Positions 6,892 through 24,000 of a stretch of DNA of 24,000 nt are shown piece after piece. The first letter of the stretch is position 1; each line of letters opens with the position of its first letter. The notes beneath the pieces are model-generated. The model was given only the letters and a program-made list of their open reading frames with translations. It was not told the origin of the DNA and made no database searches. The DNA is from Zetaproteobacteria bacterium CG1_02_55_237. Its GTDB lineage: Bacteria; Pseudomonadota; Zetaproteobacteria; Mariprofundales; Mariprofundaceae. The stretch is taken from the NCBI GenBank assembly GCA_001871195.1, contig MNXA01000045.1, positions 21,845-45,844 on the forward strand, written 5' to 3'. A program made the translations under genes and the position numbers.

Positions 6892-7466
6892 GCGATGTTT
6901 TCTTCCTCGGTAATAATGATGTCCAGCGGAATATCGTGATTCTCGGCTGGTATGGGTGGACATTCCTGACAGGCAAAGGCCAATCCAACACTCAGCAGGA
7001 TATGGTTTTTTGCCTCGCCAAGCCAGCGGTCGAAGCACCCCTTGCCCAAGCCGAGACGATTGCCGCTTCTGTCGAAACCGACCAGCGGGCAGGCAAGCAC
7101 GGCCGGTTTATCCGCAGGCGACCATGGTTCTCCATCCACAGGCTCCATGATGCCGAAGCTGCCGCGCTGCCATCGGGTTTGGGCATCAATGCGCTGCCAA
7201 TGCATATGTCCGGCATGATGGGTGACCGGGGCGTAAACATCCCGGCCGGCCAGTCCTGCGCATGCCTCAAATAGCTGAGTGGTATCCACTTCATCGCTGA
7301 GTGAGCGATAAATCAGCAGAGGGCTGTCGGATAAGCGGCTGTCGTGCTCAGCCAGATAATCGAGCAAGCCTTGCACGATTCTTGCGGAGGCATTCTGGCG
7401 CATCTGTTCGGGCATTGCGCGCCGGCGGGCCAGCGCCTGCTGTCGGAGTTGGTCTTTGTTGTTCAT
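6876..7466 (-). CDS. 5-formyltetrahydrofolate cyclo-ligase
   Basis: 196 aa, with KDQLRQQALARRRAM...LLIYRSLSDEVDT...PLVGFDRSGNRLGLGKGCFDRWL...HDIPLDIIITEE, the MTHFS/YgfA family pattern. It lies directly downstream of a 6S RNA, as in the E. coli zapA-ssrS-ygfA arrangement. Confidence 0.9.
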   Translation of the reverse strand: MNNKDQLRQQALARRRAMPEQMRQNASARIVQGLLDYLAEHDSRLSDSPLLIYRSLSDEVDTTQLFEACAGLAGRDVYAPVTHHAGHMHWQRIDAQTRWQRGSFGIMEPVDGEPWSPADKPAVLACPLVGFDRSGNRLGLGKGCFDRWLGEAKNHILLSVGLAFACQECPPIPAENHDIPLDIIITEEENIACRNY

Positions 7467-7544
7467 GCTTGAGCCTGTTTGTCGGGCAGGATTCGAGCTC
7501 GGAGGGGCGGCTGGTCTTGCCGTATGGGCATAAAAGAAGCAGGC

Positions 7545-7735
7545 ATAAAAAGGGCGCCCCCGCGCTGACGTATTGGCAATAATGTGCCGAACCCTCTCAA
7601 TTGAGGTGGGCGCCGCACTCTGGCGTCAGGTTTCCCGAAAAACGGGATACACACGACCAGAATAGCTAAGCTCCCGGTCAGCAATTATCGGCTCGGGCAA
7701 TAAGTTGCCTTACGCTCAACGCAGGGGCGCTTCTG
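7545..7735 (-). ncRNA. ssrS: 6S RNA (boundaries approximate, +/-10 nt)
   Basis: Position between zapA and 5-FCL matches the gammaproteobacterial synteny. The minus strand contains CCCGAGCCGAUAAUUG (E. coli 6S has CCUGAGCCGAUAUUU) and CAAUUGAGAGGGUUCGG (E. coli has CCAAGGGUUCAAGGGUU). The 5' segment GCGCCCCUGCGUUGAGCGUAAGGCAA can pair with the 3' segment UUGCCAAUACGUCAGCGCGGGGGCGC to make the long closing helix. Implied length is ~185 nt. The 3' end is followed by a U-run. Confidence 0.7.
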
Positions 7736-8009
7736 CCAGACCCTGTGCCTGTGACACGATGGTGTCGAGTTGCTCAAGCAAACCATCGACATCCTGACTT
7801 TGACTTTCTTTTCCCCTGAGTAACTCGCCGGCCAGATTCAATGCCACCAGTGTTAGCAGGCGATCCGAAGCGACCGTCGTACCCAGTTGCCTGATTTCAT
7901 CAATGCGTTGCTGCACCAGAGCGGCGGCTGCTTCCACCTGTTCGGGCTTGTCATTGCTGCGCACGGAAAAGGTGCGTCCCATCAGGGTGATGTTGACGAC
8001 TTCGCTCAT
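7716..8009 (-). CDS. zapA: Cell division protein ZapA
   Basis: 97 aa, MSEVVNITLMGRTFSVRSNDKPEQVEAAAALVQQRIDEIRQLGTTVASDRLLTLVALNLAGELL, the ZapA family pattern. Synteny with ssrS and 5-FCL. Confidence 0.9.
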   Translation of the reverse strand: MSEVVNITLMGRTFSVRSNDKPEQVEAAAALVQQRIDEIRQLGTTVASDRLLTLVALNLAGELLRGKESQSQDVDGLLEQLDTIVSQAQGLAEAPLR

Positions 8010-8296
8010 GATGGTGTGCTCTCCGACTGCTCAAGCAGGGTGTCCAATTGCTCCATGACATCATCCATGCGGGCACGGGCCTCGCTGCGTTTGTCATCCA
8101 GGCCCTGAATTTCCTGTTCCATATGCTGCACCTGATCGCGGCGCTTGCGCAGTTCGCTTTCGGCAAGCCGAACAACTTCACGCAGGCGCTGGTTTTCGGC
8201 CATCAGTCCTTCCATCTTGCGACGGATTTCACCCAGTGCGTCACTGAGTTTCTGTTGCCTTTCGCTAAAGGCCTGATGCAGATCGGTATTGGACAT
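8006..8296 (-). CDS. Coiled-coil protein, TIGR02449/ZapB-like
   Basis: Heptad-rich sequence MSNTDLHQAFSERQQKLSDALGEIRRKMEGLMAENQRLREVVRLAESELRKRRDQVQHMEQEIQGL. It lies immediately upstream of and overlapping zapA (ATGA), as for the TIGR02449 proteins that precede zapA in pseudomonads. The track ORF starts at a TTG (8341) with no SD, so I prefer ATG 8296. The start is uncertain. Confidence 0.6.
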   Translation of the reverse strand: MSNTDLHQAFSERQQKLSDALGEIRRKMEGLMAENQRLREVVRLAESELRKRRDQVQHMEQEIQGLDDKRSEARARMDDVMEQLDTLLEQSESTPS

Positions 8297-8359
8297 AAGT
8301 CCATTGAAGCACTGCGGCGGGGGATGGTCAATACTCTGCAAAAGGGGGGTGATGCCTTG

Positions 8360-9106
8360 TCAGGGAGAAAGCGAAGCTTCGATATCAGCGAGGAAGGGAA
8401 AATATTCGATTAGCCAGCCGGACAGGGTGCTGAAGCTGCCCAGAAAGATCAGCAGACCGACGAGCATCAGCAGGATGCCGGATATAATTTCAACCATATG
8501 CAGATGCCTGCGAAAATCCTGCATCCACTGGATAAAGTGGTTGGTAGCAGCGGCAGCCAGCAGGAAGGGGATGCCCAGCCCGATGGAATAGACAGCCAGC
8601 AGGGCAGTGCCCTGCAATACATGGTTCTGCGCCCCGGCCATGGCCAGAATGGCGCCAAGGATGGGGCCGACACAGGGTGTCCAGCCGAAGGCAAAGGCAC
8701 TGCCCAGCACGACGGAGCCAAGGGCATGGCCGCCCTTGACCTTGTCCGTGTTCAGGTGCGCATCCATCATCAGGAAGGGGATACGGATCAGGCCGGTATA
8801 ATGCAGGCCGAAGATGAAAATAATGATGCCGGCGATTTTGCCCAGCACCTGCATATTGCCCAGCAGCCATTGGCCGATGAGCGTGGCGGAGGCGCCAAGT
8901 GCCACAAACACCAGACTGAAGCCCAGGATGAACCATAGCGACTGAACCATGGCCCGGCGGCGCACATCCGGTTGTTCGGTTTTCAGGGCATCGACGGAAA
9001 TGCCGCTGATATAGGAGAGGTAGGCGGGCACCAGTGGTAGAACGCATGGTGAAAGAAAGGATAAGAGGCCTGCAAGCAGGGCTCCGGCATAGGATATTTC
9101 AAGCAT
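8360..9106 (-). CDS. ccdA: Cytochrome c biogenesis thiol-disulfide transporter, CcdA/DsbD transmembrane-domain family
   Basis: 248-aa polytopic membrane protein with the two conserved cysteine motifs, LSPCVLPLVP and GWTPCVGPILG. Confidence 0.9.
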   Translation of the reverse strand: MLEISYAGALLAGLLSFLSPCVLPLVPAYLSYISGISVDALKTEQPDVRRRAMVQSLWFILGFSLVFVALGASATLIGQWLLGNMQVLGKIAGIIIFIFGLHYTGLIRIPFLMMDAHLNTDKVKGGHALGSVVLGSAFAFGWTPCVGPILGAILAMAGAQNHVLQGTALLAVYSIGLGIPFLLAAAATNHFIQWMQDFRRHLHMVEIISGILLMLVGLLIFLGSFSTLSGWLIEYFPFLADIEASLSP

Positions 9107-9124
9107 GGGTTACGTCCTTGGTTG

Positions 9125-9454
9125 TCATGGGTTCGATACGCTGGCGGTCTTTTCAACCCAGTCGGCATAAGCCTTTGCTGCCTGTGCTTCAAGCGCGATG
9201 ATCTCCGGGGTGTCGTAGGGGTGATGCTGCTGCAGCCAGCTGATAATCTCATTCCGGCGACTCAGGGGCGCCTTGATGCTCAGGTAGTATTCGCTGCTTT
9301 CCTGCAGTTTTCCATCCCAGTGATAGATTGAGGTTCCGGCAGCTGAAATCTGTACGCAAGCGGCCAACTGCTGTTCGATCAGACCGCGGGCCAGCGTTTT
9401 TGCGATGGACGCATCGTCAACGCTGGTTAATATGATGCCAACAAGGTGATTCAT
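9125..9454 (-). CDS. cutA: Divalent-cation tolerance protein CutA
   Basis: 109 aa, MNHLVGIILTSVDDASIAKTLARGLIEQQLAACVQI...SIYHWDGKLQESSEYYLSIK...HPYDTPEIIAL, the CutA1 family pattern. It lies upstream of a DsbD-type gene, as in the E. coli cutA-dsbD pair. Confidence 0.9.
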   Translation of the reverse strand: MNHLVGIILTSVDDASIAKTLARGLIEQQLAACVQISAAGTSIYHWDGKLQESSEYYLSIKAPLSRRNEIISWLQQHHPYDTPEIIALEAQAAKAYADWVEKTASVSNP

Positions 9455-9542
9455 CGCCGCATCCTACCCGACAGGGCGGTGAAGGGAATGTCGGGTCATT
9501 GTCACTCACGCAGCATGAGATGAGCGAACAAGAGGGGTAGTC

Positions 9543-11489
<1,947 letters not shown>

Positions 11490-11505
11490 GAGGCGGCATA
11501 AGGGC

Positions 11506-14268
11506 ATGAGTCCCGTTTCACTGCTCCGTCATCATACCGGCCGCATGGCCGGTCCGGCCCGCTGGTATCTGGCTGTGCTGGTCATGATGTCGCTGGGTTT
11601 GCTGGCAGCGCATTTTGCAGTGCAGGAGCATGTGCAGAAGAATATGCGGCTTGCCGTGCATGACTGGCTGCAGGAAAGCGGTGGCGATGTGCAGCATGTG
11701 CGCTACCACCTGTTGCGTGGTGCGCTGACCCTGGAAAAGGTGCACTGGGTCGGCAAGTCCGATGCGGGCATGGCGCTCGATGTGGAGCAGGTGTTTATCC
11801 AGACCTCGAGCCAGGTCATGTCTTCCAATAACCCGACATTCTCCCTGCTGCGTCTCGAACACCCGGTGCTCAGCCTGCGCCGTGCCACACTGCTTGGCTG
11901 GCTGCGCGGCAATCCTGCCAATGCCCTGCATGCTGTGGCTGAGCTGCAGCCGCATGCAAAAGCCGTTCTGGTGCATGATATGAGTCTGCGCCTTATTCCG
12001 GATGCCACTGCACCTGTTGCCAATGCTGTGCCGCTGCAAGGTATCAGCGGGCGTATTGCCGCTGATGGCATAAAACTCAGTGGCAAGCTCAATACCGGAT
12101 CGCTTGGCTTCGACGGGCATGTTGATGACGAGGGGGCATTGAGCGGCAACATCGCTCTTCTCGGTGTGCCTCTGGATGCACTGGCCTTCTGGCTTGGCTC
12201 CACCGCAAGCCCTGGGGTGTTAGCCAGCGGTGATGTGCAGGTGAATGGTGCTTGGGCCAAGCGTGATATTGCTATGCAGGGTGACTTGCAGTTGTACGAC
12301 AATAAGACTTCGGCTTCTCTGGCGATGCAGGGCAACTGGTCGGCAGCCGGCGTGAGCATGGAAATGACCTGCGGCAATGTTCCGCTGCTCGGGCTGCCTG
12401 TTGAATGGCCGACGATTGCCGGCAGAACCTTGGTAGCAGGCAGACTCAATGGTGTGCTGCATCTTGAGCGCGGTTGGCAGCAGGCGGGATGGAATGCCGG
12501 CATCAATGGCGAGTTACTGGAGCTTGGGCTGTATGGCGAACATCTGTCGGCGTGGAAGATCGGGCGTCTGCGCCTGAGCAAGGCGGAGCTGGTATCGGGA
12601 GACGGCAGGCTGACAGCCGCGGAAATGCATATTGCAGATGCCGATATCGAACTCAATGCATTTGCCGGTCCGGATGATGTGCCGGCAGTGCTCACCCCCG
12701 AGATTGGCAAGCTGAGCTTGCAGCATATTCACCCGAAATTGTTTTTTGCCGATGGTTCCGAGCTGGTTTTACCCGAACTGGAAGGGTCGGGGAGCCTGGG
12801 TCGGTTTGGGACGGTGGCGCTGTCGAGCCCGAAGCCGGCAGAGGATGCAGGGCCCGGGCCGCATGAAACGTGGAAGATGAAGGTGGAGGGGGACGTGTTT
12901 GCCGACTGGCAGGCACAACTGAAGGCGGGGCATGTGCCCGTCGTTCGCCTGCGCCCGCTGCTGCCGGATATTTCGCTGCCGGGGGAGCAGGGCGTTCCCG
13001 AATACAGTGGCCATGCTGATGTGTCGCTGCAACTAAGGTCGGCTGCGCATGGTCTGCAAGCCATGGGTGGCGCGGTTCTGCACGATGTGCGCATGGTGCA
13101 GGGCGGCGATCAGCTGAGTGCGGTGCGTATTGATGTGGATATTACAAATGTCGGCAGCGATGGCAGTCGCAAACTTTCCCGAGTGCAGCTCAGCGACTGG
13201 CTGTATCAGTTGGGGCTTCGACCACTGGCGCGGGCGGCACCGCCTGCCCGGAGCCCGGTTGCTGCGCAGGCAACGGACTCACAGAGCCCAAGCGAAGGCG
13301 TGGCAAATCAGGCACCGCTTGCAGCACAGCCTGTGCCATCACCGGCCCTGAACTGGGAGCTTGCCGAGTTCAGCGCCGAGAATGGGCGCATCAGTCTGGG
13401 GCAGTCCGAAGCCCTGATTGCCGAAAAGCTTTTGCTGCGCGCGCATCATTTATCCAGCGGCGCGCTTTCCCCGTTTACATTGAGTGGCGAGTTCGCTGGC
13501 GGCGATCTGCTCAGTCAGGGCAAGCTGCAATTACAGCCTGCTTTCAACATGACTTCTAAAACCAGTATCAACAATGCACTGCCCTTTGCCTTCAACAACT
13601 GGATGCGGCTTTCGGGCATGCCGCGTTTTGTGCGCGGCCGTTGGAATGCGGTACTCAACATCGGCTCGGATGGCCCTGCGGCGGATCGCGCTTATACCGG
13701 CAAGCTGATTGTTGGTTTGTATCAGGGCTTGATGGAGGCCGGGGCTTTCCCGGAAGACCCCATGCTGCAACGGACCGGCTACAGGGCGCAGGATCTTCTT
13801 GAGCGATTGAATACCGCACGCAAGGTCAGTTTGTCGATTCCATTTCAGGGCGCATGGGATGCGTCGTTGCTGACCGACACGCTGGGCGAAGCAGGTATGG
13901 CCGTGCTCAAGAAAGCCGGATCAGAAGCCGATATTTCCGGGAAACATGCTGTGCCCCCAGTGAGCAAGCTTACCCGCCTGCGTTTGCAGGGAAAGAAGGG
14001 TTTTTCACACAACGAACGTGTTCGTCTGCGGCAAATGGTCAAGCAGCTGCATGCGGACAAGACGTTGATTGTGGAGCTGACGCCGCAACTGGGGACTGCC
14101 CCGCTGGATGCCGAGATGATCAATCGTGTCGTTTACAGTCAGGGGCTGGTTGAGCGCTTCCTGCGCCGCATGGGCATTGCCAGCAAGCGCATCTATCCGG
14201 TCTGGCCGCAACCCGTGCACCAGCGCGGCGATGCCCCCGGCCTGCTGCTGCAAGCTCGCCCATCCTGA
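11506..14268 (+). CDS. Large membrane-anchored protein, DUF748/AsmA-like (function unknown)
   Basis: 920-aa ORF starting 17 nt after the acs stop, with a TAGGAGG upstream. It has one N-terminal hydrophobic helix (WYLAVLVMMSLGLLAAHF). Beyond that are repeated beta-rich segments of the AsmA/DUF748 style (VQHVRYHLLRGALTLEKVHW...LRLEHPVLSL). There is a Pro/Ala/Ser-rich linker (AAPPARSPVAAQATDSQSPSEGVANQAPLAAQPVPSP). The family call is from memory of the pattern only. Confidence 0.5.
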   Translation: MSPVSLLRHHTGRMAGPARWYLAVLVMMSLGLLAAHFAVQEHVQKNMRLAVHDWLQESGGDVQHVRYHLLRGALTLEKVHWVGKSDAGMALDVEQVFIQTSSQVMSSNNPTFSLLRLEHPVLSLRRATLLGWLRGNPANALHAVAELQPHAKAVLVHDMSLRLIPDATAPVANAVPLQGISGRIAADGIKLSGKLNTGSLGFDGHVDDEGALSGNIALLGVPLDALAFWLGSTASPGVLASGDVQVNGAWAKRDIAMQGDLQLYDNKTSASLAMQGNWSAAGVSMEMTCGNVPLLGLPVEWPTIAGRTLVAGRLNGVLHLERGWQQAGWNAGINGELLELGLYGEHLSAWKIGRLRLSKAELVSGDGRLTAAEMHIADADIELNAFAGPDDVPAVLTPEIGKLSLQHIHPKLFFADGSELVLPELEGSGSLGRFGTVALSSPKPAEDAGPGPHETWKMKVEGDVFADWQAQLKAGHVPVVRLRPLLPDISLPGEQGVPEYSGHADVSLQLRSAAHGLQAMGGAVLHDVRMVQGGDQLSAVRIDVDITNVGSDGSRKLSRVQLSDWLYQLGLRPLARAAPPARSPVAAQATDSQSPSEGVANQAPLAAQPVPSPALNWELAEFSAENGRISLGQSEALIAEKLLLRAHHLSSGALSPFTLSGEFAGGDLLSQGKLQLQPAFNMTSKTSINNALPFAFNNWMRLSGMPRFVRGRWNAVLNIGSDGPAADRAYTGKLIVGLYQGLMEAGAFPEDPMLQRTGYRAQDLLERLNTARKVSLSIPFQGAWDASLLTDTLGEAGMAVLKKAGSEADISGKHAVPPVSKLTRLRLQGKKGFSHNERVRLRQMVKQLHADKTLIVELTPQLGTAPLDAEMINRVVYSQGLVERFLRRMGIASKRIYPVWPQPVHQRGDAPGLLLQARPS

Positions 14269-14400
14269 TTCACCCTGCTCCTCAGTAGATCCGTATCTTT
14301 CTCATCAATGGCCGGAAGCCGCCACTTAGATATTGCAGCAGGGTAGGTCAAAGTATGATGCCCCCGGAATTTCCGTGATGGAGACTTTCCCCGAAGCCCC

Positions 14401-14715
14401 CTAACCAGTGATAGATGCCGTATCCCACATGACGTTATCGCCTGCCGCTGTTGCCGCTGAAAGCAAGTCAATCAGAGGCGACGCCCGATGCGCCATGCTT
14501 ACCGCCGGCTCATCCGGATCGTCACTTTCAACCGGCGATGGGCCTTTTCCTGCTTCAACAGCTGCCTTTAATCGACTTAGCGCCGCCGGCACATCTGCAG
14601 CCAGTATAGCTCCGGGTACGCTTGGGCTGTGCCCCATCATTTTCACCATGCCAAGCGCCACATCCTCAAGCATGGTGATGCCGGCATGGGTCTTCGTTTT
14701 AAATGTTATAGGCAT
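14401..14715 (-). CDS. DUF1840 domain-containing protein
   Basis: 104 aa, MPITFKTKTHAGITMLEDVALGMVKMMGHSPSVPGAILAADVPAALSRLKAAVEA. This resembles the DUF1840 N-terminal pattern (MxITFKSxAxAxVxM...). There is a GAGGAG SD 5 nt upstream. Confidence 0.7.
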   Translation of the reverse strand: MPITFKTKTHAGITMLEDVALGMVKMMGHSPSVPGAILAADVPAALSRLKAAVEAGKGPSPVESDDPDEPAVSMAHRASPLIDLLSAATAAGDNVMWDTASITG

Positions 14716-14777
14716 ATTGTTCTCCTCGTGTGATGCAGCATGTCACAGCGCACCATCTGCGCATATCTTTATCGTTT

Positions 14778-17288
14778 TCAATGGGTGAACTGAGGTGTCT
14801 CATCGCCCTGTTTCCTGCCCAAAAGGGGCATGGCAGTCGGATCGAATACCCGGTAGGCCAGCAGTTTCACGCGGTCATTGATCAGGAACCAGAGCAGCGC
14901 ATAACCCCACACGAACATCGCCCAGCCCCAGCCGAGCGGAGTCATAAACAGTCCATAAACCGCAATCAATGTCGCAATAACCTGTGTGCCGACCACCGCG
15001 AGCAGCAAAATCGACGCGGGACGTATGGACCAGAACGGACCGCGTGTGCGCGTCACAAAAATCGTCAGATGTCCTGCCACGGACAGCATCAGGTACATCA
15101 GCGTCTGGATGTGCGCATGATCGAGGTGATAAACACGTTCGCCGAGGTAAAACAGACCAAACGCAGCGACGGGTCCGATGACGCCCAGCACCGTCGCGAC
15201 GCCCAGCACCATGCGCATATTCCATGCCTCGGGTTTATCCTTGTAGTGCACGTTGTCATAGGCAATGGAGAGGATGGCCCCGTCGTTGAGCAAGGCCAGC
15301 ATTACAATCATCACCGCCGTCAATGGATAGAAGTTAAACACCAGAATCGCCAGCGTCATGAATAACAACACGCGCAGCGTCTCGGCGATACGGTAGATCG
15401 CATAGCTGTTCATGCGCTGGAATATTTTCCGGCTCTCCTTGATCGCGTCTATAATCACCGTCAGACCGGGAGTCATCAGCACAATGTCCGCCGCCGCGCG
15501 CGCCGCATCGGTCGCGCCGGAAACGGCGATGCCGCAGTCCGCCTTCTTCAGTGCGGGTGCATCGTTCACCCCGTCGCCGGTCATGCCGACGATATGGCCG
15601 CGTTGTTGCAGGACATCGATAATGTGGAACTTGTGCGCGGGGAATACCTGGGCGAATCCGTCCGCATGTTCGATGGAGTCCGCCAACTGTGCGGTCTCGT
15701 CATGCTTGGTGTCCCCGAAGCCACTGGCATCCAGAATGTTGCCGCCCAGGCCGAGTTTATTGGAGGTTTCGCTTGCAATGGCCAAGGCATCGCCCGTCAC
15801 CATCTTCACGCTTAATCCCATCTGGCGGGCAGTAGCGATGGTCGATTTTGCCTGCTCGCGCGGAGGATCGAACATGGGCAACACGCCTATAAACTGCCAC
15901 GCTCCGCCTCCATCGGCCCGCGCCACTCCCAGCGAGCGGAAGCCGCGCGCCGCAAATTCATCGACGGCCTTATTAACGGCAGAGGTCACTTCATCGGCAT
16001 TGGCAGACAATTCCAGAATCACCTGCGGCGCGCCCTTGGTCACCTTGAATTGTTTGCCATCCGCACCCTTGACCGTGGCCTCGGTGCGCTTGTGCACAGG
16101 GTCGAACGGCATGAAATGCAAGGCCTGATAGTCTTTCAAAGCCTGATCATCTTGCAGGCCGCCCAGCACGGCCAGATCAATCGTGTCCTGGTTGTCGGCG
16201 CGTGATGCGAGTGCAGCGTTGAGGATGAGCTGTTCAGGACTCATGCCGTCGATGCTGAATGGATCTCCCAAGGTCAGTTTGTTCTGGGTCAGCGTGCCTG
16301 TCTTATCCGAACACAGAATGTCTACACCCGCCAATTCCTCGATAGCGGCCAGGCGTGTCACAATCGCCTCCTTCTTGGCCAGCAGGCGTGCGCCGACCGC
16401 CATGGTGACCGACAGCACCGTGGGCATTGCCACCGGAATCGCGGCCACGGTCAAAACCAGCGCGAACTGCAATGTGGTGAGCATCGGGTCGCCGCGGAAC
16501 AGTGCAACGGCAATAATCACCGTCACCAGAGCTACCGCGAGGATGATCAGGTAGTTGCCGATTTTCAGCACCGCGCGCTGGAAATGGCTGGCCGTCTGTG
16601 CCCCCTGCACCAGTTGCGCCGTCTTGCCGAAGTAGGTGTTCGCACCCGTGGCATACACCAGTGCATCGATTTCGCCGGTGCGGATGATCGAACCTGAAAA
16701 CACCGCATCGCCGGATTGGCGTGTGACGGGCAACGATTCCCCCGTCAGCGCCGACTGGTCCACCTCGATCGGATCACCTTCCAGCAGACGCGCATCCGCC
16801 GGAACGATGTCGCCCAGGCGCAGGTGGATGACGTCACCCGGCACCAGTTCGCGCGCCGCAGGGCTTATCCACTTGCCAGCGCGTTTCACCTGAGCCTTGA
16901 TTGCCAGTGTGGCCTTGAGAGCCTCGATGGCATTGCCCGCCTGATGCTCTTCCCAGAATCCGACCACGGCGTTGGCCACCAGCAGGGTGAGAATAATGAA
17001 GAAATCCGGCCAATGTTGTGCAACCGCCGAAAGGACCACGGCAGCTTCGATCATCCACGGAATCGGCCCCCAGAAATAGCTGAGGAATTTCAATAAGGCA
17101 TTGGTTTTCTTTTCTTCAATTTCGTTGGGCCCGTATTGGCTCAGTCGTTTCTGCGCTTCATCCTGACTCAAGCCATCCGGCGACGAGCCGAGCTTGGTCA
17201 GCAAATCCGGCATGGGCATTGATTTCAGTTCCCCCCCGGCTTCGTCGCTGGCTACGGCAGGATTTGTCTGCTCTGAATTGGATTCCAT
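14778..17288 (-). CDS. Plasma-membrane-type proton-efflux P-type ATPase (P3A subfamily)
   Basis: 836 aa. Motifs: TGES (ALTGESLPV), phosphorylation site CSDKTGTLTQNKLT, MVTGDALAIASETSNKLGLG and GMTGDGVNDAPALKKADCGIAV. The N-terminus (GLSQDEAQKRLSQYGPNEIEEKK) and overall size match plant/fungal-type H+-ATPases rather than the Kdp, Cu or Ca types. Confidence 0.92.
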   Translation of the reverse strand: MESNSEQTNPAVASDEAGGELKSMPMPDLLTKLGSSPDGLSQDEAQKRLSQYGPNEIEEKKTNALLKFLSYFWGPIPWMIEAAVVLSAVAQHWPDFFIILTLLVANAVVGFWEEHQAGNAIEALKATLAIKAQVKRAGKWISPAARELVPGDVIHLRLGDIVPADARLLEGDPIEVDQSALTGESLPVTRQSGDAVFSGSIIRTGEIDALVYATGANTYFGKTAQLVQGAQTASHFQRAVLKIGNYLIILAVALVTVIIAVALFRGDPMLTTLQFALVLTVAAIPVAMPTVLSVTMAVGARLLAKKEAIVTRLAAIEELAGVDILCSDKTGTLTQNKLTLGDPFSIDGMSPEQLILNAALASRADNQDTIDLAVLGGLQDDQALKDYQALHFMPFDPVHKRTEATVKGADGKQFKVTKGAPQVILELSANADEVTSAVNKAVDEFAARGFRSLGVARADGGGAWQFIGVLPMFDPPREQAKSTIATARQMGLSVKMVTGDALAIASETSNKLGLGGNILDASGFGDTKHDETAQLADSIEHADGFAQVFPAHKFHIIDVLQQRGHIVGMTGDGVNDAPALKKADCGIAVSGATDAARAAADIVLMTPGLTVIIDAIKESRKIFQRMNSYAIYRIAETLRVLLFMTLAILVFNFYPLTAVMIVMLALLNDGAILSIAYDNVHYKDKPEAWNMRMVLGVATVLGVIGPVAAFGLFYLGERVYHLDHAHIQTLMYLMLSVAGHLTIFVTRTRGPFWSIRPASILLLAVVGTQVIATLIAVYGLFMTPLGWGWAMFVWGYALLWFLINDRVKLLAYRVFDPTAMPLLGRKQGDETPQFTH

Positions 17289-17367
17289 GATGGGTATTCT
17301 CCTGTCGCTTCAATGCCGAAGTTTCGTCAGTTCTTGCGGCTAAGGCAGGTTAGCGTGCCATAGCCAA

Positions 17368-17394
17368 GGAGGTGCTGAACAAATCAGCATCTCC
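17368..17394 (-). other. Stem-loop in the STAS/ATPase spacer (possible processing, stability or attenuation hairpin)
   Basis: Minus strand GGAGATGCTGA-TTTGT-TCAGCACCTCC: an 11-bp stem with one A.C mismatch, starting 10 nt after the STAS stop codon. No U-run follows, so it is not a canonical terminator. Confidence 0.3.
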
Positions 17395-17403
17395 CTAAAG
17401 GCG

Positions 17404-17766
17404 TTATGTCTCTTCCAGCCACATGCGTGCTCGAGCAGCATCGGCGTGATCGAAATATCGGACTGCTGCTTTCGTAAAGGGCTTGCAGAAAACAGCCATG
17501 CCCTGCTGCCACTTCCTGTCTCCAACCATGGCTAGGCGTTCAATGTCGGCGAAGTGTTCGATGCCGAACTTGAAATCCTCCCAGGCCGCACTGAGCTCCC
17601 ATCCGTGAAAGTCAGGCATATCAAACAGCAGGTTCAATTTTCCGTGTTGCCGAATGAGTCGTTCGAATGCGGGCACAAATTGCGCGTAATCGGCCTTCAC
17701 CAACTTTCCGCTGACGTGAACGACAAGCACCCTGCCGTCATTTTCTTCATTGAATTGAATCGACAT
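17404..17766 (-). CDS. STAS/SpoIIAA-like domain protein (DUF3478-type)
   Basis: 120 aa from ATG 17766, with SD AGGAGTG 5 nt upstream: [88 protein letters not shown]. This is the characteristic SpoIIAA-like/STAS-SEC14 pattern. The track ORF's 29-codon extension (to 17853) is a PPK2 remnant, not part of this gene. Confidence 0.85.
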   Translation of the reverse strand: MSIQFNEENDGRVLVVHVSGKLVKADYAQFVPAFERLIRQHGKLNLLFDMPDFHGWELSAAWEDFKFGIEHFADIERLAMVGDRKWQQGMAVFCKPFTKAAVRYFDHADAARARMWLEET

Positions 17767-17772
17767 GTTCAC

Positions 17773-17830
17773 TCCTATTGCCGTTTCCGGGTGACTTCCG
17801 CTCAGGCCGTTTAGCCCGCGAAGCAGGTCG
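17773..17830 (-). pseudogene. Remnant of a PPK2 3' end
   Basis: 17773-17800 (TCCTATTGCCGTTTCCGGGTGACTTCCG) matches 19271-19298 (TCCTTATGCCGTTCCCGGGTGACTTCCG) inside the intact PPK2 gene. Translated, LLRGLNGLSGSHPETAIG compares with [19 protein letters not shown]. Similarity decays beyond ~17830. Confidence 0.55.
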
Positions 17831-17849
17831 CGGGAAAGCGGAACAGGGA

Positions 17850-19112
17850 TCACGCCTTCTCCTCATTTACACGGAACACGCACTGCCCTTGCAGGGCGTG
17901 GTGGCCGATGATGGCCGCTGCAGCACTCCACCCCTGATGCCTTGTTCCGCCGGGTGTGAGGTGCTTGCCGTGAATGAACTCGGGAAACCCCCATGCCTCG
18001 CCGTCCATCACCAGTGCATTGGCGCGATGTATGGCCTGCAAATACCTGTTTGCCTCAGTCATTCGCCGCCGCCGCACCAGATCCGCCACATAAAATCCAG
18101 TCACCACGGGCCACAGTCCGCCATTGTGGAATTCATATGGTTTGTTCTTGAAGGTATACGAAAACATCACATGCAGATCTTTCCAGTCCTCATCCACAGG
18201 TTCGATCACCGGGTGAAATGCGGGCAGTAATGGCAGTTGCTCATTTACCACCTCCGCAGCAATATATTCATCGACCTTGCGGCATCGGGCGTCATCGGAG
18301 ATATCCAGCAACGATACCAGCACATTGGCCATGGCATCGAAGCGATAACCGTAGCCGCCTGGTGAGAAGAAAGGCATCCAGTGCTGTCCGGCACCGTGCG
18401 ACGGGACGAGAGCCCGCCCCTTTTCATAGAGCACTTCATGGTAAATGTCATCAGGTGTTTTCTTGTCATCCTCAAACCAGTAGTTGGTGCGGATGAGGTG
18501 ACGCAGGCGACTTATCTTCTCGTTGAGAGCATGGTCAATCGAACCATGTGCTGCCGCCCGCATGCGGGCCAGTGTACGTTGCGCCTGCAGATACAACACC
18601 TGATCGTAAAGCACATAACCGTTATGCAGATACTCGTCAGCCCAGTCGCCGGTCAGCGGGACATAAATAAGTCCGCGGTTATTGAACTCCCAGGCGCCGA
18701 GCAGAAAGCGGGCCTTTTCGATAGCAGGCAGTAAATGCTCGAGGAATTCATCATCGCCGGTTGCCAGCCAGTATTCACCACAACCGATGATATACCAGAG
18801 ATCGGCATCAACTCGGCCGGTGGTGCCACCGTAACTGACCCGCTTTGTGGCGGTATCGACATTGCTTGGTATCTCGCCATGTGGCCCCTGATAGGCTGCC
18901 AGGGTCTCGAAGGTACGCCGGGCCACCTTGATCAACTCCTTATCCCCGCTGAGTAGTGCGGCCAGCGAGATAATCGCTCCATCGCGCGCCCAGATCCGCC
19001 GGTAGTTGTCGTGATCGCTGGGGCTGGCCACGAACCCGTCCGCCGTCACACATGCGTGAAGCAGTGCCAGTGCCCTGTTGTAACCTTCTTCCACTACGGA
19101 ATTCTGATGCAT
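17850..19112 (-). CDS. (alpha/alpha)6-barrel glycoside hydrolase, GH100 (alkaline/neutral invertase)-like or GDE_C (amylo-alpha-1,6-glucosidase)-like; substrate unknown
   Basis: 420 aa. Motifs: GFVASPSDHDNYRRIWARDGAI, GEIPSNV, GRVDADLWYII, GDWADEY, NGGLWPVVTGFY and GFPEFIHG...HQGWSAAAAI. This order of acidic/aromatic motifs is typical of that glycosidase fold. The exact family was not resolved without a search. Confidence 0.75.
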   Translation of the reverse strand: MHQNSVVEEGYNRALALLHACVTADGFVASPSDHDNYRRIWARDGAIISLAALLSGDKELIKVARRTFETLAAYQGPHGEIPSNVDTATKRVSYGGTTGRVDADLWYIIGCGEYWLATGDDEFLEHLLPAIEKARFLLGAWEFNNRGLIYVPLTGDWADEYLHNGYVLYDQVLYLQAQRTLARMRAAAHGSIDHALNEKISRLRHLIRTNYWFEDDKKTPDDIYHEVLYEKGRALVPSHGAGQHWMPFFSPGGYGYRFDAMANVLVSLLDISDDARCRKVDEYIAAEVVNEQLPLLPAFHPVIEPVDEDWKDLHVMFSYTFKNKPYEFHNGGLWPVVTGFYVADLVRRRRMTEANRYLQAIHRANALVMDGEAWGFPEFIHGKHLTPGGTRHQGWSAAAAIIGHHALQGQCVFRVNEEKA

Positions 19113-19118
19113 GTCCGG

Positions 19119-19202
19119 TCACTCCAGCGCAGGGCCGATGCCTGCATTTTGAGCAGCGAAGATATTGTTCCGTGTATTTTCTTCGTTAAATTGAATCGAC
19201 AT
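19119..19202 (-). pseudogene. Remnant of a STAS-gene 5' end (27-codon ORF)
   Basis: Minus strand GTGAACATGTCGATTCAATTTAACGAAGAAAAT matches the start of the intact STAS gene (GTGAACATGTCGATTCAATTCAATGAAGAAAAT at 17772..17740). It encodes MSIQFNEEN, then diverges and stops ([27 protein letters not shown]). It overlaps the last codons of PPK2 in another frame. Confidence 0.6.
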
Positions 19203-20112
19203 GTTCACCCCCTTCCCGGCTTTCTGCCTGCGATCCTGTTTCTGTTAACTGCTTGCGGATGGCTTCTAATTCCTTATGCCGTTCCCGGGTGACTTCCGGG
19301 TAAGCCATGTTCAGCCCCTGAAACAACTCAAGCACAATCCGGGAAACAATCAGTCGGGCATGTTTTTTATCGTCAGCCGGAACAACATACCAGGGCGCAT
19401 GATCCGTGCTTGTCGCACTCAGACATGCCTCATAGGCCTTTTGATACTGCTTCCAGCATTTCCTTTCACGCATGTCCGCAAGGCTGAACTTCCAGTTCTT
19501 GTCAGGCTGATCAATGCGTTTAAGAAAACGCTTTTGCTGCTCTGTTTTCGACAGATGCAGGAATATCTTGATGATGCGGGTGCCATTGCGATAAAGATGC
19601 TCCTCCATATCCACGATGGAGCGATAGCGCTCATCCCAGATGGCATTCTCGTCGAGAAGATCATCCGGCAGCCATTGGCTGTCGAGCAGCTCCGGATGCA
19701 CACGCACGACCAGCACCTCTTCGTAGTATGAACGATTGAAAATACCGATCCGCCCGCGTTCCGGCAGACGGCAGTTCGAACGCCAGAGAAAGTCATGCTT
19801 TAACTCTTCACTGCTCGGCTGCTTAAAGCTGAAAACCTGACAGCCCTGGGGATTTACTCCGGACATGACATGCCGGATCGCGCCGTCTTTACCACCTGCA
19901 TCCATACCCTGAAAAATAAGCAGCACAGCATGGCGGCCGGATGCATAGTGCAGGCGCTGCAAGGCGCTCAATTCCTTAACCTGTTTTTTCAGCTGTTTTT
20001 TATACTGCTTCCCGGACTCGAAAACAGGCTCATCTTTCGTTTTCCGTTTTGTGAGACTGAGCTTTTCTCCGGGACACACGCGCAACGCGGTTAAGGGGAT
20101 GTTCGTCGCCAT
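19186..20112 (-). CDS. ppk2: Polyphosphate kinase 2 family protein
   Basis: 308 aa. P-loop [11 protein letters not shown], plus [32 protein letters not shown] and [16 protein letters not shown], which are canonical single-domain PPK2 motifs. Strong SD (AAAAGGAGG) 5 nt upstream. Confidence 0.93.
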
Positions 20113-20311
20113 ACGCTCCTCCTTTTCATCCGGGCGAGTATTCGCCCCGAGGCAGAGCTGATCACATCGGGAACCGGATTTTTATCCGCCTGCTTCCCGC
20201 AGCGTTGGCTTCATTCAGAAGGCAGAATCTGTTCCAAACTAACACCTGTTCTTCCACTATAAACCTTCTGGCGGCCAGATACCACATAAGACCGGGGAGT
20301 TCCTGACTGGC

Positions 20312-20369
20312 CACGGTTAAACCGTGAAGCGCCACTGTTTTATAAACAGCATGCACCTTTATTAAAGGT
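20312..20369. promoter_or_regulatory. Cluster of three distinct palindromes (candidate operator sites) in the PPK2/gltX divergent region
   Basis: CACGGTT-A-AACCGTG (20312-20326, perfect 7-1-7). CTGTTT-TAT-AAACAG (20335-20349, 6-3-6). ACCTTTA-T-TAAAGGT (20355-20369, perfect 7-1-7). They sit in the most AT-rich stretch of the window (18 G+C in 20341-20400 by my count). Confidence 0.45.
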
Positions 20370-20530
20370 AATAAACATCAAAGTGCTGAATATCTGTTTG
20401 TGGCCGATTTATGCCTTTGAGGAATGAGGGCCCTGGGCAGGAACGACTGATGTTTTTGCTTGCGTGGATTTCGGTTACCATGCGTCGCAACTGAGATTGC
20501 AGGCTTAAAGTTCATCTCTATGGAGCTCCA

Positions 20531-21922
20531 ATGACCATTCGTACCCGTTTCGCCCCTTCGCCGACCGGCATGCTGCATATTGGCGGTGCCCGCACGGCAC
20601 TGTTCTCCTGGCTTTATGCCCGCCATCTGGGTGGCGAATTTGTGCTGCGCATTGAGGATACCGATCTGGAGCGCTCCACCGATGAGGCCACGCAGGTGAT
20701 TCTCGATGGCCTGAAATGGCTGGGGCTGGATTGGGATGGCGAGCCGGTGTTTCAGGGCTTAAGAAAAGCCGAACACGTGGTTGCCGCCGAGCAGTTGATT
20801 GAGGAAGGCCATGCCTACCGTTGCTATTGCAGTCGTGAGGAATTGGATGCCATGCGTGAGGAGCAGCGCGCGAATGGTGAGAAGCCGAAGTATGACGGGC
20901 GCTGCCGGCATCGTTCAGACCGCCCCGAGGGCGCGCCCTTTGTGGTGCGTTTCCGCTCGCCCGATGAAGGCGAAACCGTGGTCCGCGATATGGTGCTGGG
21001 CGATGTGGTGTTCAACAACGCCGAGCTGGACGATCTGATTATCCTGCGCTCCGATGGGAGCCCGACCTACAATCTGGCCGTGGTGGCCGATGATGCGGCC
21101 ATGGGCATCACACATGTGGTGCGCGGTTCCGATCATCTGAACAACACGCCGCGCCAGATTCAGCTGTATCAGGCCTTGGGCCTCACACCGCCGCAGTTTG
21201 CCCATATTCCGCTGATTCACGGTCCCGATGGCGCCAAGATGAGCAAGCGGCACGGTGCCGTGGCCATCACCGAATATCGCGAGGCAGGCTTTCTGCCTGA
21301 TGCCGTGGTCAACTATCTGGCCCGCCTCGGTTGGTCGCATGGCGACGATGAGGTGTTCAGCCGCCAGCAGCTGGTTGAATTGTTCGATCTGGCACAGGTT
21401 GGTAAAACAGCCTCACGTTTCGACCAGCAGAAGCTGGACTGGCTCAATGCGCATTATCTGCGTGAATCGGCGCCTGCCGAGCTGGCTGTACAGGTGGCCG
21501 GGTTGATGGATGTCGATACCGCCAATGGTCCTGATCTGGAGGCCGTGATTCCGACCCTGCAGGAACGCAGCAAAAACCTGCTGGAACTGGCTGCCGGGGC
21601 GCGCTTCTTCTACCAGCGGCCGCAGGCCTTCGATGAGAAGGCGGTGAACAAGAACTTCAAGCCGGAAACCGATGCCCTGCTCGATGCCTTTGTGCAGCAG
21701 GCTGCGGCCCTGGATGATTGGTCGGCGGAAACGATACATGCCCTGATTGCCGCGGTTTGCGAGCAGTTCGAGGCCGGCATGGGCAAGCTGGCGCAGCCGA
21801 TTCGCATCCTGATTTCCGGGGGTTCGGTCTCCCCGCCGATTGATGCCACGCTGGCCCTGCTCGGCCGGGCCGAAACACTGGAACGCATGCAGCAGGGCCG
21901 CGAAAAGCTCAGCGCCCGATAG
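20531..21922 (+). CDS. gltX: Glutamate--tRNA ligase
   Basis: 463 aa. HIGH motif in RFAPSPTGMLHIGGARTALF, KMSKS motif as GAKMSKRHG, plus RIEDTDLERS. Full-length class-I GluRS collinearity. Confidence 0.97.
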   Translation: MTIRTRFAPSPTGMLHIGGARTALFSWLYARHLGGEFVLRIEDTDLERSTDEATQVILDGLKWLGLDWDGEPVFQGLRKAEHVVAAEQLIEEGHAYRCYCSREELDAMREEQRANGEKPKYDGRCRHRSDRPEGAPFVVRFRSPDEGETVVRDMVLGDVVFNNAELDDLIILRSDGSPTYNLAVVADDAAMGITHVVRGSDHLNNTPRQIQLYQALGLTPPQFAHIPLIHGPDGAKMSKRHGAVAITEYREAGFLPDAVVNYLARLGWSHGDDEVFSRQQLVELFDLAQVGKTASRFDQQKLDWLNAHYLRESAPAELAVQVAGLMDVDTANGPDLEAVIPTLQERSKNLLELAAGARFFYQRPQAFDEKAVNKNFKPETDALLDAFVQQAAALDDWSAETIHALIAAVCEQFEAGMGKLAQPIRILISGGSVSPPIDATLALLGRAETLERMQQGREKLSAR

Positions 21923-21926
21923 CATT

Positions 21927-22421
21927 TTATTTCCCGTCCGGCTGTAGGTACAGATAGGTGTACCCGGCAGCCACACCAGCACCCTTGTTTTTGCCCTCAA
22001 CGGGTTGCATCAGGATGGTGCCCTTGCGGTTCTGGATGGGGGCGGTCTGGCCGGCTTGAACGCCGAACGTGGCATTGCCACCCAGACCCTCGTATTTACC
22101 GGTCAGCTGGTGTTTACCCGGGATGAATTGCTTGGCGAACACCGCGTAGCTCAGCGACGAGCTTCTGTCGAAGGCCACATCTATTCCGAAACCGATACCT
22201 GTTTCACCTTTGTATATCTCAATCGGGCCCCCGGATACAGGCGCGAAGGTGCACTCGACATTGCGCGTGGAATGAATCAGCAGGTTGATGCCAGTATGCG
22301 GCAGGATATCGCAGTCCAGTGTGCCGATGCGTGGCGGGGGCTTATCTTTTCCATCGGCCAGAGCATTGCCGGCCGGGAAGAGCAGCGCGATCAGACACAG
22401 GCCTGGAAGTATTCGATTCAT
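21927..22421 (-). CDS. Secreted DUF992-like protein
   Basis: 164 aa. Sec signal MNRILPGLCLIALLFPAGNALA, then IGTLDCDILPHTGINLLIHSTRNVECTFAP...YKGETGIGFGIDV, which resembles the DUF992 pattern (GxLxCxV...GFIFGSSxxLxCxF). Good SD (AAGGAGA). Family call from memory only. Confidence 0.65.
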   Translation of the reverse strand: MNRILPGLCLIALLFPAGNALADGKDKPPPRIGTLDCDILPHTGINLLIHSTRNVECTFAPVSGGPIEIYKGETGIGFGIDVAFDRSSSLSYAVFAKQFIPGKHQLTGKYEGLGGNATFGVQAGQTAPIQNRKGTILMQPVEGKNKGAGVAAGYTYLYLQPDGK

Positions 22422-22471
22422 GGCTATCTCCTTCTGACGGCATTTTCACCATGCGATATTTCCATTGTAGC

Positions 22472-23611
22472 CTAGGATAGCCGGTTGCGGAAATCCTCGT
22501 AGGTAAAGCGGCGCACCACTTCGATCTCGCCGGATTCGCGCAGGATGGCGATATCCGGATGGCGCACGCCATTGAACATGGTCGTCTTGACCATGGTGTA
22601 ATGAATCATGTCCTCGAAGACCAGTCTTGAGCCGGGTCTGAGCTCCTTATTGAAGGAATAGTCGCCAATCACATCGCCGGCCAGACATGAGGTGCCGCCG
22701 AGGCGGTAGGTGAAGGCCTTTTCTGTCGGCTGTCCGGAGCCGGTTATTATCGGTCGATAGGGTTGTTCGAGCACATCCGGCATATGCGCCGTGGCAGATA
22801 TATCGAGGATGGCAACGGGGAGTCCGTCGGTGGGCACTATATCCAGCACCGAGGTGACAAGTTCGCCGGTGCGCCAGGCCACAGCACCTCCCGGCTCCAG
22901 ATAAACCTCCACACCCCACTTTTCACGGAAATCGCTGATGCGACGGATCAGCAGGTCGACATCGTAATCCTTGTGTGTCATCAGATGCCCGCCGCCGAAA
23001 TTAACCCATTTCAGTTTCGGGATGTGATCGGCGAATTTCTTCTCGAAGGCGTCGATCAGGCGCACCGAGGATGCGGCCAGGTTCTCGCACAGGGCGTGTG
23101 CATGCAGCCCTTCCATCCCGCTGAGGTCGGTTCCAGCCAGATGTTCGGGGCGCACGCCGAGGCGAGAGCCGGAGAAGCAGGGGTTGTAGAGATCGGTTTC
23201 CACTTCGGCGATGCCCGGATTCACCCGGATGCCGCAGGAGATGCCCGCTGCCAGCGCCTTTGCTCCGAACTGCTGCCACTGGGCCACGGAGTTGAATACG
23301 ATATGCTCGGCCATGCTGCAGATTTCGTCGAATTCATCCTCGCGGAAGGCCGCTGAATAGATGTGGTTCTCGCCTTTGAATTCCTCGGCGGAAAGCTTCA
23401 GTTCATAAAGAGAGCTTGCTGTGCAGCCGGGTAGGTATTGCCGGACCATTGGAAAGGCTGACCACATGGAAAAGCCCTTCAGGGCGAGAATAATCTTGCA
23501 GCCGGCCTCAGCCTGAACCCGCCTGAGCACTTCTAGGTTGGCGCGCAGTTTGGCCTCCTCCAGCACATAGGCCGGGGAGGGGCAGGTGGCAATCCAGTCG
23601 GGTGTCTTCAT
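22472..23611 (-). CDS. nspC: Carboxynorspermidine/carboxyspermidine decarboxylase
   Basis: 379 aa, MKTPDWIATCPSPAYVLEEAKLRANLEVLRRVQAEAGCKIILALKGFSMW...NFGGGH...GGTSCLAGDVIG. This is the NspC-type PLP decarboxylase pattern. It lies downstream of a carboxynorspermidine dehydrogenase-like gene. Confidence 0.88.
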   Translation of the reverse strand: MKTPDWIATCPSPAYVLEEAKLRANLEVLRRVQAEAGCKIILALKGFSMWSAFPMVRQYLPGCTASSLYELKLSAEEFKGENHIYSAAFREDEFDEICSMAEHIVFNSVAQWQQFGAKALAAGISCGIRVNPGIAEVETDLYNPCFSGSRLGVRPEHLAGTDLSGMEGLHAHALCENLAASSVRLIDAFEKKFADHIPKLKWVNFGGGHLMTHKDYDVDLLIRRISDFREKWGVEVYLEPGGAVAWRTGELVTSVLDIVPTDGLPVAILDISATAHMPDVLEQPYRPIITGSGQPTEKAFTYRLGGTSCLAGDVIGDYSFNKELRPGSRLVFEDMIHYTMVKTTMFNGVRHPDIAILRESGEIEVVRRFTYEDFRNRLS

Positions 23612-23653
23612 TTATCCTTGTTACCTCTTTGCTCTCATTGCGTTTGTCACGAA

Positions 23654-23826
23654 TTATCTTTTTCTTTGCGTGCCCAAAGAAGAAGCAAGAAAGGGCACCC
23701 ACGGGTAGCTGTGAATTCCCGGTCCAGTCGCTTGCCCGTCGGGTGCAAACCGGGAATAAAGCCCCTTCTTTTTGCGCAAGGCCCGCCGGTCAAGCACCCG
23801 GGCCGGCACAGCTACACGCGGGACCC
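23654..23826. repeat. Structured intergenic repeat, copy 2
   Basis: Alignable to 5813-5986 in the same orientation. It has an 11-bp hairpin at 23658-23685 (one G.T pair) and a large hairpin at ~23698-23823 closed by GTAGCTGTG/CACAGCTAC. It occupies most of the 240-nt spacer between the CANSDH stop and the nspC start. Confidence 0.8.
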
Positions 23827-23851
23827 GTAGTCACCATACTCGCAGACGGTG

Positions 23852-24000
23852 TCAGGTCTGCGGGGAAATGTCGTCGAGCGGTTTGTAGGGCACATCCACC
23901 CAGGGCAGGCCGCAGGCATTCAGATCGCGCATGAAGGGATCGGGATCGAGCTGCTCCATATTCCACACGCCGGCTTGCATCCATGTGCCGGTAATCATCT
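23852..24000 (-). CDS. Carboxynorspermidine dehydrogenase (saccharopine dehydrogenase family), C-terminal 48 codons; the 5' part lies beyond the right edge
   Basis: Not in the ORF track. My translation of the minus strand gives ...MITGTWMQAGVWNMEQLDPDPFMRDLNACGLPWVDVPYKPLDDISPQT*, with the stop at 23854..23852. The VxNxEELDPDPF...GLPW tail is as I recall for CANSDH. Adjacency to nspC supports the call. Confidence 0.7.
   Translation of the reverse strand, partial: MITGTWMQAGVWNMEQLDPDPFMRDLNACGLPWVDVPYKPLDDISPQT

Follow-up and report, generated by a model that had tools for sequence, protein, structure and literature searches.

In a 24,000-nucleotide (nt) stretch of the genome of Zetaproteobacteria bacterium CG1_02_55_237 (contig MNXA01000045.1, forward-strand positions 21,845 to 45,844; here called the window), a glycosidase gene lies between PPK2 and a STAS gene, and both of its sides carry the 3' end of PPK2, a ribosome-binding site and the first nine codons of STAS. 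This junction repeat is probably the scar of a microhomology-mediated illegitimate recombination that left an unusually long target duplication, and the glycosidase gene, judged from sequence comparisons, appears to be a recent import from Mariprofundus and a late arrival at the locus. The genes of interest all lie on the minus strand, and the junction comprises the following features:

20112 to 19186, minus strand: PPK2 (ADP-polyphosphate phosphotransferase), intact (Pfam PF03976, 1.2e-68; NCBIfam NF042973, 488 bits, cutoff 450)
19176 to 19347, minus strand: right (upstream) target copy, with the last ~50 PPK2 codons, the Shine-Dalgarno (SD) sequence and the first 9 STAS codons (colinear with empty-site contig L060 up to 19177; aligned to the left copy)
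19202 to 19119, minus strand: stub open reading frame (ORF) of 27 codons, ATG at 19202 and stop at 19119-19121, opening with the STAS start MSIQFNEEN
19176 to 19187, minus strand: right joint, a zone of microhomology where the homologies of L060, PV-1 and G103 change over
17850 to 19175, minus strand: putative inserted cassette, consisting of a leader (19113-19175) and the glycosidase coding sequence (17850-19112), delimited by donor homology
19112 to 17850, minus strand: GH100/GDE_C-like glycosidase coding sequence (Pfam PF12899/PF06202, Glyco_hydro_100/GDE_C)
17839 to 17852, minus strand: left joint, the glycosidase stop TGA followed by TCCC (PV-1 homology ends at 17849)
17740 to 17838, minus strand: left (downstream) target copy, with the PPK2 3' remnant (17773-17838) and the SD sequence and first 9 STAS codons (17740-17786), from the repeat search and alignments
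17766 to 17404, minus strand: intact STAS/SpoIIAA-like gene, 120 amino acids (Pfam PF11964, 1e-31)

The PPK2-STAS Junction Is Repeated Around the Glycosidase Gene

The top two repeat families found by a repeat search of 17300-20200 are direct repeats D1 (17740-17775 and 19176-19211; 33/36 identical, 92%; spacing 1436) and D2 (17773-17800 and 19271-19298; 25/28 identical, 89%; spacing 1498). Gapped local alignment of 17700-17870 with 19120-19360 gave a score of 67.5 (z = 16 against shuffles), compared with 18.8 ± 3.0 (maximum 33.5) for dinucleotide shuffles and 18.7 ± 3.1 (maximum 35) for 2000 random 171-nt pieces of the same genome. A preliminary description of the window, made from the letters alone, had proposed that a degenerate duplication of the junction brackets the glycosidase gene, and both repeats bear this out. 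Its identification of the three genes (Pfam PPK2, Glyco_hydro_100/GDE_C and SpoIIAA-like), its 27-codon STAS stub, its view of the glycosidase gene as the sole ORF enclosed by the repeats and its second repeat segment (three mismatches in 28 nt, identical to D2) were likewise confirmed. Its first segment, put at 17737-17772 and 19173-19208 with about three mismatches in 36 nt, exists but is best placed 3 nt further on, as D1; in the earlier position five of the 36 nt mismatch and 17737-17739 are unmatched.

The left PPK2 remnant, which had been followed to about 17830, is present and reaches 17838: it is traceable over 17773-17838 against 19271-19347 with gaps of 9 and 2 nt (score 59.3, against 17.3 ± 3.1 for controls), and the PPK2 fragment in this copy is out of frame and contains stops. 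A block equivalent to 19209-19270, earlier given as 62 nt, is indeed missing from the left copy, with a size of 52-62 nt; its limits are ambiguous because two imperfect direct repeats (CGGGAACGGCATAAGGA and CAGAAAGCCGGGAAGGGGG in the window) flank the gap and contain its ends, a layout that would fit a slippage deletion. The STAS open frame extends back through the remnant to a GTG at 17853, and the 120-residue form listed above is the conserved one, with more than 100 homologues of exactly 120 amino acids at 72-88% identity. Since the 10-11 nt preceding the STAS ATG are conserved across phyla, part of the first segment is under constraint.

Related Contigs Preserve the Empty Site

The closest STAS homologue (88% amino acid identity) is encoded on the metagenome contigs L059-L064, which are about 86% identical to the window at the nucleotide level and in which PPK2 and STAS are contiguous with no glycosidase gene, constituting an empty site. 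Positions 3489-4663 of L060 match window 20359-19177 and positions 4618-5019 match window 17786-17385, and the 46-nt stretch that these two blocks share (4618-4663) matches both window copies. Direct PPK2→STAS adjacency without the glycosidase gene also occurs in three loci from other phyla (L184, L188 and L204), and among 80 STAS loci from GTDB species genomes there was no glycosidase gene at the STAS junction (0/80). The glycosidase gene itself is present in 5 of the 128 genomes of the family, evidently the Mariprofundaceae given that it includes M. ferrooxydans, and in none of four congeners. The synteny of relatives thus supports the earlier proposal that PPK2 and STAS were once adjacent and that the glycosidase gene arrived with a duplication of their junction.

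The reading of the PPK2 C-terminus into the STAS start, by contrast, had been described as a side effect of that event, which it is not: at the empty site of L060 the PPK2 frame also enters the STAS start (ending in SEHVDSIE), and the overlap therefore predates the insertion rather than being its by-product. In L184 and L188, PPK2 ends in IRKQL, 54-88 nt before STAS, whereas in the window and L060 it reads on, and the last 19 PPK2 codons of the window (19186-19245, after IRKQL) are a lineage-specific extension into what is an intergenic spacer in other phyla. The PPK2 of L059-L064 reads in three frames and is for this reason probably a pseudogene.

The Glycosidase Gene Is of Mariprofundus Type

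Together, the leader and the ORF (window 19179-17849) are 91.3% identical in nucleotides to Mariprofundus ferrooxydans PV-1 (genome G101, contig L067) and 95.5% identical to the part assembled in the Mariprofundus genome G103. The other genes of window 4001-24000 are all 64-77% identical to those genomes (gltX, 75%); at the amino acid level, identity to G101 is 77% for GltX and 90% for the glycosidase. In both G103 and L065/L072, the glycosidase gene follows an MscS channel gene at a distance of about 250 nt, and in PV-1 the order is inverted, with the glycosidase gene upstream of the MscS gene. We take MscS→glycosidase in Mariprofundus to be the native context.

The leader also indicates the direction of transfer. 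Mariprofundus leaders share at least 45 nt further upstream than the leader homology of the window extends, such that the window leader is a truncated, derived form and the transfer ran from a Mariprofundus-type donor to the locus studied here. The additional upstream part of the donor leader shows no similarity to the PPK2 end or the STAS start (p = 0.3-0.7), and the Mariprofundus copies consequently carry no decayed stub. A comparison of codon usage with neighboring genes, which had been put forward as a further indication of origin, was run and is uninformative either way, because a gene from a donor of the same family is expected to look typical, as this one does (GC3 at the 37th percentile of the genome; codon log-likelihood z = -0.15).

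Contig C85 of G103 (L238 4783-5026) ends inside the glycosidase gene, and its last 244 nt are identical to window 18450-18693, while the 419 nt before this identical tract differ from the window at 30 sites. Either this tract was exchanged very recently, or cross-talk in the assembly of populations living together produced the identity.

More distant glycosidase homologues (65-75% amino acid identity; L074, L081, L083, L097, L082 and L085) often adjoin a P-type ATPase gene or a STAS-like gene, with 47-55% and 33-45% amino acid identity, respectively, to those of the window. The Mariprofundus glycosidase gene adjoins MscS and, in L065, lies near glgC. These neighborhoods hint at a functional link, possibly to osmolyte or compatible-solute turnover.

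Both Joints Lie at Microhomologies

At the right joint, homology to the empty site (L060) stops at 19177, while homology to PV-1 runs from 19179 and that to G103 from 19184. The sequence here is AATGAAGAAAAT followed by GACGG in the intact STAS gene, GATGATGAAAAT followed by ATGCGG in the G103 leader, and AACGAAGAAAAT followed by ACACGG in the window, giving a microhomology of ATGA(A/T)GAAAAT in which GAAAAT is perfect and 10/11 positions agree imperfectly. At the left joint, homology to PV-1 ends at 17849, just past the stop codon, and the microhomology is TGATT, formed by GTGAT(T/C) at the gene's end and CTGATT in PPK2 (19352-19347). Donor and target thus share only a few bases at each joint and no longer homology. 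On the target, 172-177 nt separate the joints, and this interval, now present in two copies, exceeds the ~130-160 bp first estimated for the duplicated junction.

The absence of an integrase, an attC-like site or insertion-sequence ends, noted previously, was upheld: the called genes within 6 kb include neither an integrase nor a transposase, the repeat search found no inverted repeats at the edges of the insert, and homology among the three contexts of the glycosidase gene ends within 6 nt of the stop codon, which leaves no room for an attC site.

Sister Variants Retain Complementary Remnants

A related contig, L241, carries the 3' end of the glycosidase gene, a 66-nt spacer, STAS and DUF1840, with no ATPase gene. 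Parsimony-informative sites in the glycosidase gene group L241 with the window and L065 with PV-1 (13:1:0) and place G103 with the window gene (19:1:1). L241 also has the STAS gene closest to that of the window (89.8% nucleotide identity), with L060 outside at 87.1%, and the divergence between the window and this sister variant is 7-10%.

The spacers of L241 and L065 run colinear with the final 62 nt of PPK2 (equivalent to 19261-19200; score 63.7, against 17.7 ± 3.3), whereas that of the window has retained the counterparts of 19347-19271 and, in addition, the final ~15 nt of PPK2. Because these remnants are complementary, they are best explained by one longer ancestral remnant that underwent different deletions, and the glycosidase genes in this setting would all trace to a single old event. 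In L065, the glycosidase gene is PV-1-like up to the stop, its final 63 nt being 97% identical to PV-1 compared with 81% to the window, and is followed by an L241-like remnant and STAS; this contig would represent a secondary transfer of remnant and STAS back into Mariprofundus, anchored on glycosidase homology.

An Offset Insertion Would Leave Both Overlapping Genes Whole

We propose that a horizontally mobile island of 6.1 kb carried PPK2→STAS→H+-ATPase→DUF1840, with the PPK2 stop 14 nt inside STAS, and that 1.33 kb of Mariprofundus-type DNA, made up of a 63-67-nt leader and the GH100-like glycosidase gene native to the region downstream of MscS, entered it. The leader would have joined the target after STAS codon 9, at ATGA(A/T)GAAAAT, and the region of the gene's stop would have joined it about 172-177 nt further upstream, at TGATT in the PPK2 3' end. 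With the two joints offset in this way, the stretch between them lies on both sides of the insert; the upstream copy would complete PPK2, and the downstream copy would supply the ribosome-binding site and start of STAS. With PPK2 ending inside STAS, one gene or the other would be cut short by a flush insertion. Presumably only an offset insertion of this kind leaves both overlapping genes whole, and selection would then explain the duplication. Later decay would account for the rest, the downstream PPK2 remnant having lost 52-62 nt between imperfect repeats and gained small insertions and deletions.

The stub ORF consists of STAS codons 1-9 fused in frame to the donor leader frame, and its stop lies 6 nt before the glycosidase ATG; in G103, with which the window leader frame was compared, the leader frame ends in DDENMRNKIFAAQNAGIGPALE and a stop. 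The stub ORF probably couples translation into the glycosidase gene. The leader (19100-19180, minus strand) is conserved in all four contexts, an upstream AUGCA in it can pair with UGCAU at the start codon, and the leader fold has 19 pairs, only one of them with a compensatory change; this fold could be a translational control element. An Rfam search of 14000-21000 at E <= 1 returned no match.

The offset itself could have arisen when the two ends of a linear fragment joined two sister copies at a replication fork, by a template switch, or by replacement inside a transient tandem duplication.

Several observations weigh against an offset insertion from a Mariprofundus-type donor. The glycosidase-remnant-STAS order of L065 stands in a Mariprofundus context and requires a second, backward transfer, and the upstream side of L241, where a right joint shared with the window would lie, is unassembled. 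The distal ~50 nt of the left remnant (past 17800) are, on their own, only marginally PPK2-like (p about 0.02-0.03), and the true upstream edge of the duplication could accordingly lie near 17822 rather than at 17838-17849. Moreover, identity in the left copy is uneven, at 89-92% in the two repeat segments and about 60% distally, unlike simple neutral decay, and may reflect constraint, a gene-conversion patch or filler DNA.

Alternative Explanations

Homology-facilitated illegitimate recombination and double illegitimate recombination at microhomologies are known from Acinetobacter baylyi, Streptococcus pneumoniae and Pseudomonas stutzeri. The event proposed here resembles them in lacking mobility genes, in its 5-11-nt microhomology joints, in its identifiable donor and empty site, and in placing a promoter-less gene in an operon. 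It differs in that laboratory events usually delete or replace target sequence, whereas ~172-177 nt are duplicated here, and in that neither joint uses a long homologous anchor and the event is old.

The alternative that fares best, which we nonetheless consider unlikely, is a pseudo-duplication by homology-facilitated illegitimate recombination from a donor in which, as in L065, the glycosidase gene was already accompanied by a truncated PPK2 3' end and STAS. Donor STAS would have paired with recipient STAS and the leader would have joined after codon 9 of the recipient STAS, with the recipient junction left upstream and the donor junction downstream. The order MscS-glycosidase-remnant-STAS does occur in a Mariprofundus context (L065 and L140), and one homologous anchor plus one microhomology joint yields a duplication without a special step. 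In natural transformation of Acinetobacter and Streptococcus, such one-anchor events greatly outnumber insertions in which both ends join illegitimately. Within STAS, the share of sites common to the window and L065 is slightly higher in the 5' third of the gene (10:7) than in the 3' third (5:12), but this gradient is not significant, and these sites alternate with those common to the window and L060 without any breakpoint. The window remnant, moreover, argues against an L065-type donor because it keeps the equivalents of 19347-19271 that L065 and L241 lack. The glycosidase gene of L065 groups with PV-1 up to its stop, while that of the window groups with L241 and G103, and at a site where L060 reads GAGGTGTCTGCGG, the left copy and the PPK2 of the window both have GAAGTCACCCGG.

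Replacement inside a transient tandem duplication, which we regard as distinctly unlikely, is a sub-mechanism of the offset insertion with the same outcome: the island, or only its PPK2-STAS-ATPase core, would for a time have stood as two tandem copies, and the cassette would have replaced everything between STAS codon 9 of the first copy and the PPK2 3' end of the second, and the stub and the remnant would be leftovers of the lost halves. Experiments have shown that transferred genes can be activated by tandem duplications arising spontaneously and independently of homology (PMC11111574), and tandem duplication is a plausible background process here, given that the order of the PPK2, STAS and ATPase cluster is cyclically permuted across phyla, as expected from duplication followed by loss of the outer copies. 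The order of MscS and the glycosidase gene is permuted as well (MscS→glycosidase in G103 and L065, glycosidase→MscS in PV-1). However, the insert is donor DNA from joint to joint, with no second copy and no ATPase or PPK2 5' pieces between the repeats. When 80 other genomes were searched upstream of STAS for PPK2 3' remnants, these turned up only at the three loci that have a complete PPK2 and at none of the 77 STAS loci lacking one, and an additional, unobserved intermediate is required. The join points of homology-independent tandem duplications (PMC11111574 and the work it cites: Reams and Neidle, 2004; Li and Bock, 2019) are similar in having short or absent homology and in placing a transferred gene under resident expression signals; here, by contrast, only the junction is duplicated and the foreign gene stands between the copies, with no head-to-tail block.

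A broader interpretation holds that leader and glycosidase gene form a self-contained, integrase-less mobile unit, whose conserved leader, made up of a short ORF and a hairpin pairing with the start codon, repeatedly steers it into the 5' ends of resident genes and captures their ribosome-binding site, with offset-joint duplication as a regular outcome. The unit occurs in three contexts (downstream of MscS, upstream of MscS and at the PPK2-STAS junction), and we consider this interpretation very unlikely to be correct.

Insertion of an insertion sequence, integron cassette or integrase-borne element, with the repeats as its target-site duplication or recombination sites, is highly improbable, although the same leader and gene recur in those three contexts. 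A duplication of ~172-177 nt is far too long for a transposase footprint, terminal inverted repeats are lacking, neither an integrase nor a transposase was found within 6 kb, no Rfam family is matched, the cassette extends at most 6 nt past the stop, and its 5' edge varies from -67 in the window to about -110 in PV-1. Target-site duplications of insertion sequences and transposons share with this locus the direct target repeats that flank the insert exactly, but measure 2-14 nt and stem from a fixed staggered cut, where the joints here are offset; this candidate was rejected on the length of the repeat and the lack of inverted repeats and a transposase. An integron gene cassette was rejected because homology ends within 6 nt of the stop and there is no integrase. 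Campbell-type integration of a circle would likewise leave direct repeats on both sides, reversible by recombination between them, but the insert here is only leader and gene, and the donor's native locus, having no copy of the PPK2-STAS junction, offers no homology for the crossover.

Chance or convergent similarity without any duplication, such as a repeated conserved ribosome-binding region, has a negligible probability: although the conserved 10-11 nt before the STAS ATG might suggest it, coding sequence of two genes matches in the same order on both sides (z = 16), the match includes the out-of-frame, stop-containing PPK2 fragment, and the Mariprofundus donor leader has no such sequence upstream.

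The Glycosidase Gene Is Nested in a Larger Island

The glycosidase gene and its neighbors belong to a block that includes the following further features:

17288 to 14778, minus strand: P3A-type proton-efflux H+-ATPase (NCBIfam TIGR01647, 1064 bits)
14715 to 14401, minus strand: DUF1840 (from the Pfam families of the called genes)
14267 to 20400, no strand assigned: island PPK2-glycosidase-STAS-ATPase-DUF1840, 6.1 kb, missing at this site in congener G001

Contig C58 of G001 is colinear with the window to 14266 and resumes 38 nt later at window 20401, with 14267-20400 absent; there, a DUF748-like gene abuts gltX, with the gltX upstream region 38 nt on. The absence of this block makes the glycosidase gene a nested insertion in the 6.1-kb island, the edges of which carry no repeats above shuffles. 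G001 has a different ATPase→PPK2 pair elsewhere. PPK2, glycosidase, STAS, ATPase and DUF1840 probably form a single operon, and a promoter and terminator scan of 17200-20600 found nothing inside it beyond chance.

Among the STAS loci from GTDB genomes (L141-L220), the STAS/P3A H+-ATPase/PPK2 cluster is spread across phyla, with amino acid identities to the window of 75-89% for the ATPase (Nitrospirota, Acidobacteriota, Verrucomicrobiota and Proteobacteria) and 60-72% for PPK2. Its gene orders include STAS→ATPase→PPK2 (L143, L159, L164 and L195), ATPase→PPK2→STAS (L184 and L204), PPK2→STAS (L188) and ATPase→PPK2 (G001 and G036), and PPK2→STAS→ATPase is also seen. This permuted distribution points to wide horizontal transfer with repeated tandem duplication and loss. 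Two island variants (L060 5020-5094 and L241 803-817, corresponding to window 14718-17393) lack the ATPase gene between STAS and DUF1840; these two losses are independent and have different deletion end points. Outside the island, a segment of ~180 nt (23654-23833) matches at least 14 places in G001 at 75-86% nucleotide identity.

The Inserted Form Prevails in the Population

The preliminary description had also suggested that recombination between the repeats would excise the glycosidase gene cleanly. The copies match perfectly over no more than 20 nt in a row (17753-17772), so that excision is possible but should be rare, and no excised form was found in 19 assemblies of this population from different samples, which are 100% identical over 17300-20200 and all carry the glycosidase gene. 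Similarly, no excised or pre-insertion allele was found with the exact STAS protein of the window; every such contig carries the glycosidase gene. The population occurs in groundwater and spring metagenomes, in agreement with published accounts of terrestrial Zetaproteobacteria (PMC6443915).

Implications for Gene Gain in Zetaproteobacteria

The gene gain described here is well documented but mechanistically ordinary; it belongs to a known kind of event and represents no new kind of system. Gene gain without mobile-element machinery is usually inferred only from patchy distribution, whereas in this case the donor lineage, the native context, the empty site, both joints at base resolution and a sister variant with complementary decay could all be recovered. 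The locus illustrates a way for a foreign gene without a promoter to enter an overlapping stop/start junction: a ~175-nt target duplication leaves the residents undamaged, and the newcomer reuses the second ribosome-binding site and start as a short upstream ORF. If the leader did drive a mobile unit, offset duplication would be a regular mode of landing in overlapping gene pairs rather than a one-off accident. Taken together, these data document recent exchange between genera of iron-oxidising Zetaproteobacteria and identify the PPK2-STAS-H+-ATPase cluster as a rearrangement-prone mobile module.

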